A stretch of DNA of 53,646 nucleotides, counting the filler, from Bipalium vagum (taxonomy: Eukaryota), in the NCBI GenBank assembly GCA_037834085.1. It is 2 parts of 2 records of this genome, joined end to end, with 100 filler letters (N's around TTAATTAATTAA, not from the genome) between each part and the next. Parts side by side here need not be neighbours in the genome. Positions count along the whole stretch, not along the records: positions 1 to 24,553 come from JBBMKC010200052.1; 1 more part is not named here. One strand, 5' to 3'. Below the pieces are notes generated by a model, which worked only from the letters and a program-made list of their open reading frames with translations, was not told the origin of the DNA and searched no databases. A program made the translations under genes and the position numbers. Below are positions 1-41,055 of this stretch, piece by piece; position 1 is the stretch's first letter; each line of letters starts with the position of its first letter.

Positions 1-571
1 TGTTTATTAAGTTAATAATGAAATTAAATATTCAACGATAATTCTATCATCTGGTGAGGTACGACTTATCCTTTAACTCTCTGTAAATACAATTTTTGAC
101 GAAAAATAAAATTACATAACATTTCTACTCATATAAAATTACGTTTTTTAATTATTAATTCAAATTAATTAAATAAATTTAACTAAAAATATTGTTTAGG
201 AGCAGCCACTGATTATTAATCAGTAGTATGTCATCCTAAAATTATTTAATTATAATTTTTAGTTATGTTTAGTAAAAATGAAATATAAAATGTACGCCAT
301 GATTGACAGCTTAACTGGATAATCAGAGACGTTAAAATGAACTGCAAAATAGTATATAAGCCACCGAAAACTCATTGTTTTTCGCCAAGAAAATTATAAA
401 AAAAATTGGTATATTTATAATTGATAATTTTATTTTGCTGATCAGGGTTTTTCCTGGAACATCTCTTAATTATAATGTGTTTGAAGTCTATGAAAGAGTG
501 CCTGTTTCAGTTTGATTGTTGTAAATAAAAAGGGTTTTACAATTATTTTATTTAATAATTTTTTTAAGTAA

Positions 572-1354
572 TTGGTTTGTGTTGTTAGTAAGAGGGTGAA
601 ATTTGAGCACCATGTGAAAGCTGAGGAAAAGGCGGATCCAGCGGTTCCTCGATCTTATAAATCGGTGGCTACAATGTCGATGAAAGAAGTTTGTTTCTCA
701 GAGCTGGAAAAGAGGATGAGTGATCTGGAGCAGAAAACCGAAATGCTTTTTACGAAGATAAATGCAATTAGTAAGCATTTGTCAATTAATAATGTGTCCA
801 TTTCATCTGAGAAGATTGGTGTTGTTCGCCTAAATCGATTAATTCTTTTAATAATATTATTATTAATAATAAAAGTAAAATAACTGAAATTGCTCCTGGT
901 ACTGACGGATTCACTTTGGTGAAATGGAAAAAAAGCCTAATCCGCCGATACCTAAAATGTATTCGAACGAACAAAACATTCGACTTTTGAATAAACATGA
1001 GAAAACTAAAATATTTGGTTTATTTCCAAATTTATTGCAGTTGATTAAAATGAAACATATTCCAATAAAGCTAAACGCATTAATCTGGAGATTAATCGGA
1101 TAAGAAGTGAACAAATTAATATTCTAAACTTTGAAAAGCGGCATTTTATTAATGGAAACTTATATATCCAAATAAAGAAACAGAATAATAGCAATGCAGT
1201 TGACGTTGAAGATTGGAAAATTTCGAAAACCTCGGTGAATTCCGCTTCCAGTCCAAAAATATCAACTCCTAACATTAATGTTCATCATTATAACAATAGT
1301 AACCATTATAAAATTAATAATCAAAAGATTTATAATAATAATAACAACAACAAG

Positions 1355-1386
<32 letters not shown>

Positions 1387-3130
1387 TTTACCAGTACAGA
1401 AATTTAATAATAAATCGATAAAAACATCAATAAATATCGATAATCTTTCAGAAAAAATTAATCTTTTCGATTGTAGTTTGAAATTGGTTCTACCTTTAAT
1501 GAAAATTTTATTGAATCCTCTTCAGTTATTTCTAAATTCTTGTTAGCCTTTTCTAATGACTTTTCGAATACCAATTTTTTTCTGTTGCTGTTTCCAGGAC
1601 TGCGGAAATTAATAAAGTTATAAGTAAACTTAAAAAGACTCATAAGCTTCCAGATTTCTTGGTTAAATTGGACCTAAAATGTATAGATGGCAAACTATTC
1701 TATTTGAATATAACTCCATCTGTATCTAATAATAATCAGATACAATCGACATCTTTATCTCAACTTCCGCATACTCGTATAACTGAAATAATAAAACATT
1801 TCCCCAAGCTAAGTGAGCTTCTTTTTTGCAAAGTAATTCCGCTGGCACCAATGATGTTATTGAAAGGCTTTCGAAATAATCCGGATTTCTGACCAATATC
1901 TGTTTTATTGAGGGTACATTTTTTAAGTCTTCCGAAAGTCAGAAAGTTTATAAAAACCAATCGGATTTCTTTTGATATATCAGAACTTGCTAAATTAGGT
2001 GAGGAATTAAACCCAACCCTTCAAATGATGATTCGCCAGATAAGATGGTTTTAATCGCTTTTCATTTAAATTATCTTTTATTGAAAGATAAGCTTATTTC
2101 CAAAATATCTGACTCTGATTATCATGTGATAAACTTTCTATAAAATTTGAGTTTTTATCTGTCAATTTCACAATGTGAAATTTTGGCTCATCTTCTTTAA
2201 ATAATTTTTGTGACCTTGGTGAGAAATAATAAGCAAATTACTTCCAAAAATCATTTTTCCAAAAGAAAATAATTGAGAGTGTTAAGCGGTTAAAAAGTGT
2301 TAAAATATCACAAACGTTGGATAGATGCAGCAATGTAATCAATCCAGATTTAAATGAAACGCGTTTTCACAATTTATTGAGATAAACTGCTCTGATATAC
2401 TGTCTCAATTTGAGCTAGTCTATCAATGTGGAAACGAAATATATATACGGTCCAATCTAAAGAAGAGAATATATCAAAAACCGAGACAGTTCGTTTTGTT
2501 TTTGAAAACCTTATAAGAAATAAGTATAATGTCTTGTTGCTGATTAGTTAGAGATTCTGGATCCCAAAATCCGGTAAGATTATGGCTTAATAAATCATAA
2601 AATAAATAAAAATCAAAACTCTTCCTCTGAGAATTTATCTTTTCCAAAGAATAATATTTCTAAAACTATTTCAAACCAAATATTAACGAGAAATTTGAAT
2701 TTTGTTGTAAAAAATGATTCGATAAAAAACTTTTTTGAAAGCCTTCAACTAGGAGAAAAGTACATTTTTCTTGATTGCACTGTTACAGTTGCAATTCTTG
2801 AAGGATGTACTAATTTTATATTAGATTGTCTTGATCTCAATAACATAAACGATATATCTGTGGTTTTTATTTTGGTTTGGCATCCAAACTCTCAAAAATT
2901 TATTTTAATTTTGGATTTTTAGAAAGAGTTTTCATTTGTCATAAATCCCACATTTTTTACAACTCTGAATCTGTGCTTTCAATAAATGATTCTTTAAAGG
3001 AACTCTTCTTTGAAATTCGGGGAAATGTTGATTCTTTGCAGTTGAATGAGAGCCTTCCGCATGACACGCGTGGTTCTGGACTCTACTCAAACTTAATTTT
3101 TTGTGGAATAATTGAGAATTATTCAAATGG
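572..3130 (+). pseudogene. Long degenerate coding region, possibly the N-terminal (pre-RT) part of a non-LTR retrotransposon ORF
   Basis: Chain of + strand ORF fragments with coding-like composition: coiled-coil ELEKRMSDLEQKTEML, Asn-rich linker, and a weak Ulp1-protease-like segment near 2700-3120. It is cut off by the pPolB element at 3132. No diagnostic RT motif is visible. Confidence 0.25.
1333..1387 (+). repeat. (AAT/AAC)n microsatellite
   Basis: Directly visible run taataataataacaacaacaagaataataat... Confidence 0.9.
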
Positions 3131-3131
3131 T

Positions 3132-3213
3132 ACACAAATGGGATCCCATTGTTACCCCTTTTTTCCCTCACCCATTCGCACGCGTGCCTCCCGGCAAACA
3201 CCCTCATTCGTTC
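3132..3213 (+). repeat. Left terminal inverted repeat of the pPolB element
   Basis: gttaccccttttttccctcacccattcgcacgcgtgcctcccggcaaacaccctcattcgttc aligns with the reverse complement of 8997-9060 (ggtagccccattttttcctcactcactcatatgcgtgcctcccggcacacatactcgttcattc). Confidence 0.85.
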
Positions 3214-3391
3214 GTGAAAAACGTGTTTACAAATAAGCTTCTCTTTGTGTGGCGTATAAAATTAAAATATTTCTATACGCATAAAATATACCAAAAAATC
3301 AAAAATTAAAATTTTTATTTTTTCTTTAAAAAAATAGCAAGCGAAAATAATATTAATAAAAAAAAGTTACAGAGCTCAGAATTTAATATTG

Positions 3392-6300
3392 ATGAATGAC
3401 AAGCTATAAATAAAAATTTACCTTTTGAAAATTGTCCTTTTCCAGACAATTTATTTCACGCTGATTTTAATCAGACAACCGAAATAGAAGATGGTAATTT
3501 GATTCATTATTTAAATTCTCATTATTATAAAAACATCTTCATTCAGTTTTTCAATATGACATTTCCCCAGCAGATACAACTTCAAAAAAATATTCGTAAT
3601 TGTTTAAATTTTATTTAGAAAACCTTTACAAATGATTCAGATAATTATAGAGTTAAACTAACACCTTTACATCCGATAATTTATTCAAAACATGGTTCAT
3701 TTCCTTGAACAACTAAGGATAATGTAATTAATTTATTATATTCCAAATTAGAAAAAAATTTACAATCTGCTGAAGAAGTAAATATTGAAGACGTAACTTT
3801 TGAATTTATAATAATACCAATACCTCAAGGAAAGGGAAAAAAATTTATCAATTATAGTGGTAATAATTCTACAAATTTAATATTACAAATTTTTGCAAAA
3901 AATTCTATCAGGTTGTGTAGTATGAAATTTGTAGGTAATGAAATTGCCAACTTTAATTGTTGTTTATTTGTTATCGGCTTCATATTTTACCATTCTGTTT
4001 TTTGCGTTATTATCATTTTACAAATTTCATACTACATAACCTGATATTAATATAATTCAAAATAATGATTCAATTTGTTTGGCTAGATCAATAGTAACTT
4101 CTTTAACTTATGATAATTTCGAAAATAAAAATTATTTAAACCTTGGAGAAAAAGATAATAGAATTAGATATATTAGAAGAGGAGATAAAATACAAGAAAA
4201 ATGGTCTATAAAATTACATAATATGGCACAAGTAGAAATTAAAGAAAATGGTAATAATATTGATGATTTAAAATTATTTGAAAATAATTTAAATTTAAGA
4301 ATTTAGTTTATCATCATAATAATAATAATAATTCTTTTTATATAGAAGCAATGAAGAATTTGTAAAACAAACTTTTATATTTTATGATCAACCAAATCAT
4401 CACTTTATTTCAATAGCAAAAATATCAACTTTTTTACAATCAAAAAAATATTGTCACAAATGCTTACTAGGATTTTAAAATCAGCATAAATGCAAAGTAG
4501 ATAATGTTACAACTTATAGAAATTCGAACATTTGTGAAGATTGTAAACAAGAATGTTATAATAGATCTGATCATAAATGTGGTTGTAAACCACCTTTTAA
4601 TCAACAAAAATGTTATATGAAAAATAATGAAGGAAATTTTAAACAAAGTAATAAATACTTATTTTGTGATTTTGAATCTACTCAAGAAAATGCAGGTTTT
4701 CATGAAATGAATTACGCAATAGCTTATGATACTGAAACAAAATATGTTAAAATACAAACAAACACAATTTCATATAAGCGTAACTTTGCCAAAGGCACTA
4801 AATATTTCAAAACCAATCGAAGGTTATAACAACAATGTTGTTGATAAAGAATTAAATATGGATCCTTTACAATATATAACAATAGCTCAAATTTATACAC
4901 AAATGTTTTTGTCTATAATAAATAATAAAGAAATTGAAATTCCAAGATTAAATGATTTTGAAGAATTATATTTTTATAAATGTATTCATTGGCTAGAATT
5001 TATAAATTAAGAATTTAATCAAAATATTCAACATACAAAAAGAGGAGGAGAAAAAATAATTAATGTTAATAATAAAAATTATAAACCTGGTGGTTATTAT
5101 TATGATACAAAAACTGAAATTCATTATATCTATGAATTTAATGGTTGTTAATTTCATGGCTGTCCAAAATGTTAAAAAATAAAAAAGAAATATGTGAAAC
5201 AGGAAATAAACAATGGAAGAATTATATGATAGAACTTCAGAAAAAATAAAATTATAAACTATTATAAAGATTTTAATTTAAATTTACAACTTGTAGAAAT
5301 ATGGGAATGTGAATACGAAAAACTTTTAGAAAATTCTGAATTTAAGAATTTTAAACTCCACTTAACATTATCTAAATTAAAACCAAAGGAAGCGTTTTTT
5401 GGAGAAAGAACTGAACTTTTAAAATTGTATTGGAACACGTTGTTTGAGAAACACTCACACTCTAAAGTAAAATATGTAGATTTTGTTTCATTATATCCAA
5501 CTGTAAATAAATATGATGAATATCCAGTTGGGCACCCAATAAAAGTATTTAATATTACTCCCGAAGATTATTTTTAAAATGGTGTCATTTCTAATGAAAA
5601 AGCTACGCGTAATTACTTTGGAATTATAAAATGTAAAATTTTACCACCAAAAAATTATTACTACCAGTTATACCTGTTAAACAAGAGTTTGGAAATGCTC
5701 CAAAATTAATATTTAGTTTATGTAGAACTTGTATGGAAAAATATATATAAAATGTGATCATTACATAAAAATAATAATTGTGAGAATTCCGAAAATTCTG
5801 ATCACATAATAAATTAATGTAAAACATGTATAAAAAATAAATATAATTTAAATCATTCAAAAAGATAATGTAAATCATGCTATAATTTTAAACAAAAAAA
5901 TGTAATCATAATGATGAAGACAGATTCCTAATAGGAACATGACCTACAATTGAAATAAATAAGGCAATAGAAAAAGGATACAAATTAATAAAAATTTATG
6001 TAATGGAAAATTTTGAAAAAACTAAAAGAGGTTAATTTGAAGATTATGTAAATATATTTATGAAATATAAATTAGAAGCATCTGATTGTAAATTTAAATA
6101 CCATTCTGAAAGTTGTTCACCAGGTTGTAATAAACATTGTAACGAAGATTGTAAAAATGATAATAATTGTAATACAAAAACTGAATTTGTAGCAGAAAAT
6201 ATTGCTTATGATTTTGATATTGATTATATTAAATTTAATGCTGGTTTAAGATTTATGGCCAAAATTTGTTTAGTTAGTTTATGGGGACATTTTGGAATGA

Positions 6301-7066
6301 GATGATTTTGAACAATATTCATATGTTTATAATTATAATGATATTTGTAAAATAATATTCGATGACATAATTAAAGAACCAAATCCAATTATTTTAAATA
6401 AAGAAGTTTGGATGATGAAATATCATATAAAAGAAGAATGGAAAAAACCAAATAAAACTACAAATACTTATATAGCATATTTACAACTGCTCATGCAAGA
6501 TTAATATTATACAATCTTTTAGAAACATTAAATGAAAGAGTAATTTATTGTGATACTGACAGTACAATATATATTGATAATTCCTGTGAAAATAAAAATT
6601 TTAGTCATGAAGAATGTAAGCCTGTTAGAAAAATTACAAGGAGAAAGTTTGGGAGATTTAACAGAAGAAGTTGAAAAAGATTATGAGATTGGATCTTATA
6701 TAATAGAAATAGTTGTAGCTGCTCCAAAAGATTATCATATGAAAATTTGGAGTAGTAAAAAAATAAAATAGTTACAACTGGTAAAACAAAAGGTTTTGTA
6801 AAAAATGACATTAATTCAGATAAACTAACTTTTGAAAAGAAAAGGAATTTAGTATTAAATAATCCTAATAATCCATTTAATAAAATAAGGAAGAAAATTA
6901 TGAAATAGTAGAAAGTATAAAATTTAAATTAAGAGGAAATAGTTTTAATAATTTTAATAGGATACAAACAATAGATGAAATAAAAATGTATGATTTTGAT
7001 TTTAATAAAAGACAGATCAAATATTTATAAAATGGTAATGTAATAATTTATCCATATGGATATTAA
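3392..7066 (+). pseudogene. Protein-primed DNA polymerase B (pPolB), Polinton/adintovirus type, with frameshifts and stops
   Basis: Motifs in order: LQSAEE..IPQGKG; IQNNDSICLARSIV; ExoI YLFCDFESTQ; nuclease-like insert YEFNGC*FHGCPKC...EIWECE; AFFGERTE; motif A YVDFVSLYP..YPVGHP; motif B AKICLVSLWGHFG; [10 protein letters not shown]; motif C IYCDTDS; LGDLTEE; APKDY; KTKGF; C-terminal YPYGY*. Confidence 0.93.
3908..4044. mobile_element. Mariner-type MITE inserted in the pPolB gene
   Basis: TIRs tcaggttgtgtagtatgaaatttgta / tacaaatttcatactacataacctga with TA on both sides. Removing it restores the frame KNSINIIQNNDSICLAR. Confidence 0.88.
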
Positions 7067-7139
7067 AATTTTATTCTTTAGAAAAAAAATGTTAGCTAGA
7101 GCTGAAGGCTCGTTTTCCCAACTCAAAAATTTCCCAACA

Positions 7140-7400
7140 ATATTTTTTCATTAGATGAAAAAATTAAGTTAAAACATATTAATTCTGACATTCCTTTAAT
7201 AACTTAATGTCAAAATTTGAAAGAAGAAGGAATCCATTGGCTTGGATATTATAACTGTGTTTATTTTGACTCTTATATGAACGAACTATAGTATTCAATA
7301 AATAAGATTTTCAAAGTGAAATGGATTTGTTGTATAGTGGACAATTAACTTTATATGTTTTATATCAAATTTATAAAGAAGTTCCATTCAATAATTATTG
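7140..7400 (+). pseudogene. Adenain-like (Polinton maturation) protease, copy 1
   Basis: EGIHWLGYYNCVYFDSY ... DFQSEMDLLYSGQLTLYVL, with frameshifts and stops. Boundaries are approximate. Confidence 0.75.
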
Positions 7401-7597
7401 TTTGTGTAAGCAAAATGAAAAAATTTATAGAAATTTTAGAAGAGTTACAAAGTGTTATTTTAGAAAAATAAAAAGAATTTAAAATTAAAAAAATTAAATT
7501 TTATTTTAAAAAATGCAAGCTTCGCTTTTGAAACCAAAGGTTTCGACTCGATTTAAGATTGTAAAAACAAATACATTACTATAGTTTTTATGTAAAT

Positions 7598-7992
7598 ATG
7601 AAATTAACTAAACTACAAATTTTGATTTATTTGATATTGCTGAAGAATTAGAAATGCCTTTAAAAGTTTTAATGAAAGATAAAATAACAGAAAAAAGAGT
7701 TAAATCAGAAATTACATCAATTATTAATTATCAAAATACAAATCAAAAAGGAATTCATTGGGTTGGTTATTTAAAAAATTTATATTTTGATTCTTATGGT
7801 TTAACACAACTTGAAGATTTAGAAAAACATGTAAATGAGTACAACAAATTTGATTTTCAATCTGAAACAGATTTAGAGTATTCTGGATAATTATCTTTAT
7901 ATGTTTTATCGAAACTTTTTAGTGGAAAAAAAGTTGAGGAAATTTTAGAAGAATTGGAATATGTTATTTTTGAAAAGTTAAAATTAAAAAAT
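7598..7992 (+). pseudogene. Adenain-like protease, copy 2
   Basis: TNFDLFDIAEELEM..IINYQNTNQKGIHWVGYLKNLYFDSYG...DFQSETDLEYSG*LSLYVL. The G-x-HW, YFDSYG and Q motifs match adenovirus/Polinton proteases. Confidence 0.85.
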
Positions 7993-8993
7993 ATGGGTGA
8001 TAAACTTTTTGTTAATATTGCTGAAAATGGAGAATTTATTTATACCAAAGCTCTTAATCATTATGATGAAGATGAAGATGAAGAAAATGAAATAAAAGAA
8101 GTAAATTTTATTAGAAATGAAAGTGAAAATAAATTTTTAAATGTTATTGGAAATGAAATGAATTTTAAATATGAATAATAAATATTCCAAATCCTACTGA
8201 AGATAATGATGTTGTAAAAAAAATATATAGATGATAAATGAAATATAATAAGAAGTGAAAAAATAATTAATGTAAATGATAAAACAATTAATATTAAAAA
8301 ATTTGAAAATAACTTAAATGTAAAAATTAAAAATATAGAAAAAAAATTCCATGATGAAAAACTAAAATCTATAAAATATATTTCAAAACTAAAAATATTT
8401 TATGCAGAAGATGATTATAAAAAATTAAATGAAACATTCAGATCAAATATTTGGCATTCATTTGGAAATCACCAATATCAAATAGTATAAATGTTTCTGG
8501 TCTAAATATCACTGCAAATAATGATGGATATTTATTTGGAAATATTTATAATTCTTTAATTGAACCTTTTACAATAATATTAGTTGCAGAAAAAATTAAT
8601 TATAAAAAAATGATATTATAAATTTTGGAACAGAAAATAAATGTCATGTTTTTGGTTGGTATAATAATAATAATAGGAATTATTTTTTTGTTAATGGAAA
8701 ATCAATAGGACGAACAGAAGTAACAGAATCTAAATTCGGAACCGATTTAATATCTTTAAAATGTACTAGATCACCTACATTTCCAACACAGTCACATTTT
8801 ATCTATAATTCAGAAAAAAAATTCAACAATTTTTCCATCAAGTAGTAAGTATGAATTTCAATTTAATTCAAAAAATAAAAAAATTTATGAAATCATGATT
8901 TTTAAAAGAAATTTATTTAAAAGTGAAATGGAAAAGATTGAAATTTTTATGAAAAAGTTTTATCCAAATATACACTACAATGTAGAGTTCTGA
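7993..8993 (+). pseudogene. Fibre/receptor-binding-like protein with a C-terminal LamG/ConA-like domain
   Basis: NIPNPTEDNDVVxKKYIDD resembles the P....DaatK.YVD fibre-shaft motif. C-terminal KIYEIMIFKRNLFKSEMEKIEIFMKKFY resembles a LamG-like terminal strand-helix. Frameshifted. Confidence 0.55.
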
Positions 8994-8996
8994 GAT

Positions 8997-9079
8997 GAAT
9001 GAACGAGTATGTGTGCCGGGAGGCACGCATATGAGTGAGTGAGGAAAAAATGGGGCTACCAAAATAGTACACTATGTGT
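8997..9079 (-). repeat. Right terminal inverted repeat of the pPolB element
   Basis: Reverse complement of 3132-3213. Core gcgtgcctcccggca is identical; ends in tgtgt. Confidence 0.85.
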
Positions 9080-9699
9080 CCGATTACCATGGGTTTCAAC
9101 CAATTTTATTATCGAGAGTTTTACTGCTGCAGAGTAATTTGTTCTTGTACTCATTTTTTACTATAACAAAATAACAGTATACAAATTATTAGAATTAAAA
9201 TAATCATCTTACTCTCGAATTTCAGCTTAAAAAAATAAATCAACAAGTAATTCAAAAATATTTATAAGTAATCCAATATTTAAACATATTTTAAATAATT
9301 AATTATAATTGTGATTCAATGTTTATGATTTAAATGATTCATTTCACTCTTGTATAATACCCAGTCCAAATTTGTAAAAATAATGAGGTAAAAAGTGCGT
9401 TTTATGCATGAGATTTTTTTTTCAATATTACTACATCATTGCATGAAAGACTTTTTTTCAATATTTCATTTCAATCTTGTATAACACGCAGTTCGGATTT
9501 TGAACCAAAAATGAGGTAAAAAATTGAAATTTGACGTCAATTTGTTTAAGATATTAGTTAAGAGAAAAATATGGGAAACTTTGTATCCAAAATAATAACT
9601 CAATTTTAAAAAAAAATTCAGTTCAGTAAATATTAAAATTTATGAAATTATGATTTTTCACAAATGTTGAGTTATTTGAAGTTAGAAATTGTTTATTTT

Positions 9700-10190
9700 T
9701 ACCTGATGATTTTGAGTAGACTTGTTTTACAAAACCCATGATTATCATTCATTATGATCAATGTAATGAATTCAGCTGATCTACTATCAAGTTGACAATA
9801 CCTACGATTTCTCAAATGTTTTTCATTGACAAGCTTACCCTCTTCTATTGTCTGAAACAGCAATAGAAGTAGAAAATATTCTAGCTCCGTCATCAAATCT
9901 AGAAAAGTAGAAAATGTATGGAGTAACAGAGATAACGTAGATGCAATGCATGGTCCAAAATTCAATTTATATATTTTGTCAATGTTATGTCAACTGGTAC
10001 TTCTTGAATTAAGCGCGAGAATCTTTGAATTTACATGAAAATAGGCAAAGTTTTAAGTTCTCAAGGAAAATTCGAAACTAGTAAAACCTTTCATCTTGAT
10101 AACTTCAATTTGGCGGTAATTTTTTTCAGATGCTTCATTTTGTTTCTCCGAGCTAACAATTGGGATCGACTGTTTTGTTGTAAACCATAT
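9700..10190 (-). mobile_element. Possible hAT transposase C-terminal remnant
   Basis: RIFSTSIAVSDNRRG(KL) weakly resembles the hAT dimerisation-domain motif ERxFS...RxRL. Confidence 0.25.
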
Positions 10191-40400: not shown

Positions 40401-41055
40401 AAAGATGTATGGTCTTCAATTAAACATTGTCTGGATTTTGCTGGCACACCCTGTTTTATATATTTAAAAAACATTTTGGCTTAAGAATTTGAAGTATTCA
40501 TCACATTTTAAAATCATCAAAAAAATTTTATTTGGTAAGTCTAATATGAAAAAAAAGAATAAATATGACACAAAATAAATAAGTTTCAGACTTCATTTTA
40601 TCTGTCAATAGTATCTGTACTATTAGATTAGAATTGTTTATTTAAATTAAATTTCTTTACAATTTGCAGTCAGCATTTTCGGTGCAAACGTGCTTAAAAA
40701 CAGATACACTGGAATTCGTAATGGAAAAAATAGTTTTGTCAGAGGTAATACAATTAAATTGTTTTTTTCGTTTTTGAAGTCATCTATACTTACACAGGTA
40801 CATCGCCTTGTTGTTATTAACAACGAAACGGAACGCCAGGTTCTAGGTATTGTCAGTTTAGCTGACTTGTTGCATTATTTTGTTCTCAGATATAATGGTC
40901 GACATTCTACGGGAAATGTTGTTTCTGGAATTTCGTGTTGTAACAATCTAAACAATAGTCAAAATCTCAGCGAACAAGAATCGCAAATCCATAATACTTC
41001 ACCCAATTCGCTCAGTTTTAGTACTGAAGATTGTGTTGCGGAAATTGCTAATTGA
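31414..41055 (+). CDS. PRKAG: AMP-activated protein kinase gamma subunit (SNF4/PRKAG family, four CBS domains); exons 31414-31603, 34085-34296, 34344-34517, 34639-34710, 40670-40744, 40798-41055; 5' exon(s) not found
   Basis: GT-AG exons splice in frame: [26 protein letters not shown]; [31 protein letters not shown]; [15 protein letters not shown]; [11 protein letters not shown]; CLKTDTL; [15 protein letters not shown]. All align with AMPK-gamma. Confidence 0.95.
34788..34900 (+). repeat. LTR-like repeat (family B), also present inverted at ~38650-38750
   Basis: cctaaaagtgacggattttacgttaaaaatatcgataaagggcttttagattact...tatcagaaggattta matches the reverse complement of 38650-38750. Confidence 0.6.
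35200..35889 (+). mobile_element. pogo/Tigger transposase remnant with right TIR (intronic)
   Basis: [54 protein letters not shown]; ends ...gagatcttactgta. Confidence 0.88.
37250..39082 (-). mobile_element. Family A LTR-like copy interrupted by about 1 kb of nested LTR-like inserts (intronic)
   Basis: 38750-39082 matches 19207-19525 and 37250-37730 matches ~19555-20010, both as reverse complements. The intervening DNA includes family B and a + strand LTR-like unit starting TGT at 37809. Confidence 0.7.
39105..39596 (-). mobile_element. tRNA(Ala-like)-derived SINE/tandem repeat with two heads
   Basis: Minus strand ctcagcagtcagagcagtccatgcacatgtgaaggtcccgggatcgaatcccggtatctcc has A and B boxes and a tRNA-Ala-like 3' end. 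A second, truncated head lies at 39105-39155. Confidence 0.65.
39284..39506. mobile_element. MITE (Merlin-like) with ~50-bp TIRs
   Basis: tactattgaactaaaaaaccctgtgtagtgtgtatgcagggtttttg is inverted at the other end. GG/CC termini; duplicated flank ctatgtt. Confidence 0.85.
40034..40453 (-). mobile_element. Internally deleted Tc1/mariner-superfamily (maT-like) element
   Basis: TIRs cagggtgtgccagcaaaatcc; internal [20 protein letters not shown]...ACMRFRQRI. Confidence 0.85.

Follow-up and report, generated by a model that had tools for sequence, protein, structure and literature searches.

Serine codons at the nucleophile position of two decayed, tandem adenain-like proteases in a probable Polinton-type relic of Bipalium vagum

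The stretch of DNA analysed here, called the window, comprises 53,646 nucleotides (filler included) from the Bipalium vagum assembly GCA_037834085.1 and has a GC content of approximately 25%. It is made up of parts of two records, which meet at 24554-24653, where two runs of 44 N flank a 12-base palindromic stop linker; the join lies within a transposase ORF. Between positions 3155 and 9055 there is a unit of 5.9 kb, in which the remains of a polymerase gene, two protease copies and one more ORF are enclosed by 59-bp inverted-repeat arms. The features of this unit are the following.

3155..3213, plus strand: left inverted-repeat arm of 59 nt with 80% complementarity to 8997-9055; likely the point where the relic begins
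3400..7068, plus strand: probable family B polymerase (pPolB) gene, broken into many pieces, 3.7 kb; PF03175 on one piece, motifs by eye
7151..7465, plus strand: alignable part of the pseudogene for protease copy 1, with His at 7235, Asp at 7268, Gln at 7312 and Ser (AGT) at 7336-7338
7315..7317, plus strand: FQS-motif Ser (AGT) of copy 1, used as internal control; its partner in copy 2 is TCT at 7861-7863
7336..7338, plus strand: nucleophile position of copy 1, AGT (Ser), read directly
7573..7974, plus strand: pseudogene for protease copy 2, with His at 7756, Asp at 7789, Gln at 7858 and Ser (TCT) at 7882-7884
7882..7884, plus strand: nucleophile position of copy 2, TCT (Ser), with a stop two codons downstream
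7993..8990, plus strand: further broken ORF, pieces in three frames; no Pfam hit, best Atlas score 0.89 (a lead only)
8997..9055, minus strand: right inverted-repeat arm; it departs from the left arm at 12 of 59 positions (JC distance 0.24, range 0.12-0.43)

The 15-nt core of the arms occurs at only those two places in the window, where 0.03 occurrences would be expected, and no target-site duplication was seen by eye at the ends of the relic. One piece of the polymerase gene (5233-5574) matches PF03175 (DNA_pol_B_2) at E=0.0039, which is below the curated cutoff, and Pfam scans of the whole polymerase frames gave no hit. The sequences DFVSLYP and YCDTDS (about 6546), which we take to be polymerase motifs, are found in separate frames of this region. 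In addition, the motifs ICLARSI, HHFISI, YEFNGC and EIWECE, recognised by eye, are kept in the broken polymerase at 4070-4400 and 5130-5310; the former two are presumably OTU-like and the latter two presumably Vsr-like. Domains of these two kinds occur in Polinton polymerases, according to the consulted parts of three sources (PMC8502044, 10.1101/2023.08.22.554363, 10.1101/2024.03.18.585575). Between the arms there is little or no space for integrase, ATPase and capsid genes. A Pfam scan of 21 read-through frames (1-3152, 3301-7067, 7980-13501 and part of 16500-19351) gave no hit to an integrase, a packaging ATPase, or a major or minor capsid protein, in a search so insensitive that it also missed the polymerase. 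Judging from its size, its repeats and its missing genes, the locus is likely a Polinton-derived relic and not a complete Polinton, and the 5.9-kb unit could be a derivative formed by deletion, a fragment that had been captured or a segment-like unit.

On the minus strand, the region 16500-19100 holds another run of broken ORFs, which lack introns, are very AT-rich and may represent a further fragment of a related element. Within this run, the region 18027-18344 has an Atlas score of 0.93 to Laminin_G_3/ConA-like viral clusters (97 of 256 features shared), which serves as a lead. The C-terminal part of the 7993-8990 ORF resembles, by eye, this ConA/LamG-like region or the frame after it. On either side of this second viral-like fragment lie two intron-less genes for rhodopsin-family receptors, at 13630-14595 and 21002-21868 on the minus strand (7tm_1, E 2e-12 and 5e-13), which are separated by 7.3 kb and share 92% identity over 300 nt. 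Farther along the window, exons encoding CBS domains are found at 34054-34311 and 40651-41055; the two sets probably belong to one gene, which we take to be of the AMPK gamma type. Transposase remnants (DDE_1 and HTH) occur at 35368-35688 and 23901-24605. The receptor genes, the CBS exons and these remnants together suggest that the host is an animal.

The two protease copies constitute a direct repeat, 546 nt apart with 76% identity over 80 nt, and BLASTP gives E values of 1e-11 and 1e-9 for the two pieces. An earlier note on this DNA, made from the sequence alone, had described them as tandem adenain-like proteases in which Ser replaces the catalytic Cys while the other catalytic residues persist, and direct reading of the codons bears this description out. 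The nucleophile motif is DFQSEMDLLYSGQL in copy 1 and DFQSETDLEYSG*L in copy 2, the asterisk denoting a stop just after the Ser. The Cys nucleophile is absent from both, and Ser is found instead. The catalytic His of GIHW, the acidic third residue of the triad, which is the Asp of YFDSY, and the oxyanion Gln (7312 and 7858) could all be located in both copies. The spacing between Gln and the nucleophile site is Q-x7 in each copy and not Q-x(5-6) as had been supposed; the register proposed earlier is nevertheless right, as the same x7 spacing is shared by the five closest Cys-bearing relatives.

Neither copy retains an intact frame that holds all of the catalytic residues. In copy 1, stops stand at 7205 and 7303, a gap directly behind the Asp motif and ahead of the Gln motif shifts the frame, which changes again near 7400, and the N-terminal third cannot be aligned. 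Because its His and Asp lie in a different frame from its Gln and Ser, copy 1 encodes no intact protein with all four residues. Copy 2 is interrupted by three stops, at 7582, 7609 and 7888; its only Cys is N-terminal and is also present in relatives. Both copies are pseudogenes that derive from the family and are not working members of it, and neither is able to make a full protease today.

Searches with copy 2, read with X at its stops, retrieved 111 representatives at E values up to 0.001, and two further searches gave 27 and 56 proteins. A profile of 31 sequences matches adenain 1avp weakly (E=0.053). In this alignment, the Ser column of the copies falls on the Cys of AACGLF, their Asp column on the Glu of LFEPFG and their Gln column on the Gln of VQGPNS. 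Adenain has His54, Glu71, Gln115 and Cys122 as its catalytic residues, as given in the part of PMC4246237 consulted. PF00770 is matched by 8 of the 31 aligned members at E up to 0.1, the best at 4e-4. A Pfam scan of the two copies in the window themselves matched no protease family, a direct search of PDB sequences with copy 2 returned nothing other than chance matches to bacterioferritin, and a 92-aa piece searched against longer proteins yielded none of 36 candidates.

A structural model of copy 2 with X at the stops was predicted with a pLDDT of 94.6; it was built on an alignment of mostly Cys-bearing relatives and therefore describes the fold of the family and not the folding of a pseudogene product. 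Foldseek placed 1nln second (E=9.3e-4), after another enzyme of the CE clan, and structure comparison ranked the adenovirus 8 protease 4wx4 first (Z 10.3, rmsd 2.9 over 120 residues). Judged by their titles, the top 29 VIA rows for this model comprise entries for adenain, Ulp1/SENP, the CE clan and related protease folds. The Ser is residue 104 of the model, directly ahead of a helix at 108-116. The alignment of the copies with their relatives is ungapped across the nucleophile site at 62-68% identity, and a nucleophile elsewhere in the protein was rejected on this ground. From the alignments and the predicted fold, the Ser codons are thus assigned to the nucleophile position of adenain, and the copies are assigned by descent to the protease family of the adenain/Ulp1 fold (CE clan). 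The earlier note is accordingly supported in its choice of family and in its assignment of the residues.

The residue at the site was examined in 178 aligned homologues, counted as distinct proteins of fewer than 500 aa (one protein of 500 aa or more was dropped) with gap rows kept separate; these are predicted ORFs from other samples and not other copies in this host. The site is occupied by Cys in 148 of them, by a gap in 25, by Ser in one and by other residues in four. Among the 145 homologues that are in register, having Gly next to the site, Cys is found in 141 and Ser in one. His is kept in 173 of the 178. The five closest intact relatives (P0118-P0122, from ENA and Logan assemblies) are 61-68% identical to copy 2; they share its GIHW, YFDSY and FQS-x6 motifs and, together with the next two, carry Cys at the site in seven of seven cases. 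No intact, Ser-bearing close relative is present among the 178. The lone Ser-bearing homologue, P0037 (NCBI source, a 387-bp contig), has Glu at the position of the oxyanion Gln and stands on a different branch, and its sequence marks it as an apparently independent dead or decaying case. The earlier note had also entertained selection for Ser, or a lineage with Ser as nucleophile; this is not supported, given the broken state of both genes and the Cys in the seven closest and in 141 of 145 in-register homologues. Cys in other family members is the outcome that the note itself had named as refuting its proposal, and it is seen here among relatives from other samples.

No related locus was found in viral_contigs or genome_contigs, and an exact search of viral_contigs with the DNA of the Ser-form motif gave no match. 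Two distant loci (38% identity) were obtained from metagenome_contigs; in both, a single protease gene with Cys is present and no ORF of polymerase size was recognised. Among the matches listed, two sequencing runs contain related DNA, with shares of 0.34 and 0.11, and none is an RNA run.

The divergence of the copies gives further information on their history. Among residues that are invariant in the seven closest relatives, 9 of 31 have been lost from copy 1 and 6 of 52 from copy 2. Between the copies, pN/pS is 0.74 (bootstrap 0.47-1.27), with dN of 0.36 and dS of 0.54 over 72 codons. Their dN/dS of about 0.7 is far above the omega of approximately 0.001 that the part of PMC8097293 consulted gives for core genes of active Mavericks, including pro. 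A neutral model calibrated on the invariant-residue losses of the copies gives a probability of 0.25 that His, Asp and Gln are all kept in both, so that this retention was rejected as a sign of selection. In the same model, Cys is lost from both copies with a probability of 0.04-0.05, and Ser is reached in both with a probability of only 0.0009-0.0023, or about 1 in 400 to 1 in 1,200. Apart from the nucleophile, the two copies show the same loss at only about one of 31 invariant residues, and this one stands at a block edge that is uncertainly aligned. On the other hand, amino-acid differences between the copies are fewer at invariant columns (10 of 31) than elsewhere (26 of 40; Fisher P 0.009), a depletion that persists after correction for codon mutability (P 0.03-0.04), suggesting that the divergence of the copies was partly under constraint.

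The codons themselves had been read as a sign of two independent changes from Cys or of selection for Ser, since AGT and TCT belong to different codon families. The codons for Ser fall into two separate sets, and switching between them takes two substitutions (PMC6872785, in the part consulted). The same AGT/TCT contrast, however, separates the copies at the Ser of the FQS motif, seven codons upstream of the nucleophile site (AGT at 7315, TCT at 7861), where the five closest relatives also have Ser; a switch of this type is seen at two of the four Ser positions common to both copies. Moreover, the neutral model gives the observed AGT/TCT pair a probability of 1.3-4e-4 from a TGT start and of 4-12e-4 from a TCT start, the latter fitting approximately three times better. 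The contrast at the conserved FQS Ser and these ratios together mean that the codons show neither independent origins nor selection, and the codon-family argument of the earlier note is weak. Two independent changes are still the likeliest reading, although the codon families alone do not separate the histories. A more general caution is that AGY and TCN codons at one site prove by themselves neither independent origins nor selection. The FQS TCT codon of copy 2 lies within a hairpin at 7857-7871, with a perfect stem of 6 bp and a loop of 3 nt, which is absent from copy 1; hairpin arms of such a type cover about 3% of the sites in the relic. As a speculation, a templated double change at this hairpin could explain the codon switch at the FQS Ser of copy 2.

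Collectively, these data are best explained by two decayed tandem pseudogenes of the adenain/Ulp1 fold in a likely Polinton-type relic of an animal genome, in which Ser was reached without selection. We hold this reading to be probable because both frames are broken, the intact relatives have Cys and many other invariant residues have been lost. A working ancestor would have been a protease with the triad Cys-His-Asp and an oxyanion Gln, comparable to the enzyme by which adenovirus has its virion precursors cleaved. Its gene would then have been duplicated in the lineage of the element, whose other genes may have been lost, or may never have been present here, before the element was integrated and decayed. 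Once catalysis no longer mattered, Ser could have arisen at the nucleophile position by unselected mutation, most likely through one hit per copy. Alternatively, the site might have changed once at an early stage, with copy 1, which decays faster, being hit twice thereafter; a single early change from Cys to Ser under pure neutrality was rejected as the main route, as it requires an extra early hit. What speaks against unselected decay is the low neutral probability of Ser in both copies, the residual constraint between them, and their placement as sisters in the best tree, built with the nucleophile column removed (support weak, 69/85, not starred), together with nine residues, Ser included, that they share and that are not found in the five closest relatives. 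The fork of the two copies had not been resolved in an earlier tree.

The same observations would fit an element that had been, before its decay, a compact, capsid-less and Polinton-derived unit comprising a polymerase, two protease paralogues and one accessory gene, with the paralogues catalytically dead and selected for their fold. Only small residues would be tolerated at the site of such proteins, and Ser would have been accepted once before the duplication or once per copy. If the pair served as binding or decoy proteins, it would represent a fossil pseudo-protease branch of the adenain family. Between the copies dS is 0.54, larger than the 0.24 (upper limit 0.43) by which the inverted arms differ, and the lack of room for capsid, ATPase and integrase genes agrees with this proposal as well. 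By analogy, inactivated protease domains are retained elsewhere in the same virus group, as reported for the vOTU of adenovirids and bidnavirids in the consulted part of 10.1101/2024.03.18.585575. The data in support of such a dead pair, however, amount to 72 codons and a 59-nt repeat, with a sister placement that is not starred, and the pair is opposed by the lack of an intact Ser-bearing close relative among the 178 homologues, by the lack of an exact match to the Ser-form motif in viral_contigs and by a dN/dS far above that of active elements. In a rough weighing, a likelihood ratio of 10-100 applied to a prior of about 0.3-1% (Ser in 1 of 145) leads to roughly 0.1-0.3, from which we infer that a dead pair of this kind is rather unlikely, and its role as a fossil branch of binding or decoy proteins equally so.

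An active adenain-fold lineage with a Ser-His-Asp triad is much less likely than such a dead pair and is, in our estimate, very improbable. It would account for the His, Asp and Gln kept beside Ser in both copies, but the chance retention of these three residues is not rare, both genes are broken, no intact example exists among the homologues, and the Cys in the closest relatives largely refutes it. In TEV protease, which has a different fold and thus offers an analogy, the exchange of Cys for Ser reduced activity approximately 10,000-fold, and recovery took ten rounds of directed evolution (PMC4576821, in the part consulted). Least probable of all is an artefact, in which the nucleophile would lie elsewhere or the Ser codons would be sequence errors: the adenain profile match is weak and the codons are those of the assembly, but the ungapped alignment, the column on the Cys of AACGLF, the position of the model Ser just ahead of its helix and the N-terminal location of the sole Cys of copy 2 oppose it, and two separate errors that both yield Ser are unlikely.

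As best explained, namely as unselected decay, the locus is of little importance, being a further decayed Polinton-type relic that is unusual in its tandem proteases and in a coincidence at one codon. Intact Ser-bearing copies, if they exist, would represent an adenain that is naturally dead or of the Ser form and would indicate a non-proteolytic role for the protein in capsid-less elements. The titles, abstract openings and passages of the literature consulted describe neither a Ser-form nor a tandem Polinton protease.

Among known systems, adenain (PF00770, Peptidase_C5; PDB 1nln and 4wx4) resembles the copies in their predicted fold and in the order of residues, namely His, acid, Gln and nucleophile. 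It differs in having Cys, Glu and 204 residues, whereas the copies have Ser, Asp, the Q-x7 spacing, about 135 residues and broken frames, and form a tandem pair. The five closest relatives differ from the copies in that all have Cys and open frames. The relic shares with Polinton/Maverick elements (adintoviruses) an adenain-like PRO gene within inverted repeats, beside what is probably a pPolB gene, and, like it, endogenous Polintons are mostly degraded by stops and frameshifts, as described in the consulted parts of PMC8502044 and PMC8097293; the latter puts degraded vertebrate Maverick loci at 96%. A maturation protease is known from Polintons and adintoviruses, again from sources consulted in part (PMC8502044, PMC11071296, 10.64898/2026.10.13.758929, 10.1101/2024.03.18.585575), and this is the work expected of the ancestral gene. 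According to the available part of 10.1101/2023.08.22.554363, Polintons measure 13-25 kb, have terminal repeats of 100-1500 bp and are flanked by a target-site duplication of 5-8 bp, in contrast to the 5.9 kb of the relic, its arms of 59 bp and its ends with no such duplication seen. Unlike Polinton/Maverick elements, the relic carries its PRO gene duplicated in tandem.
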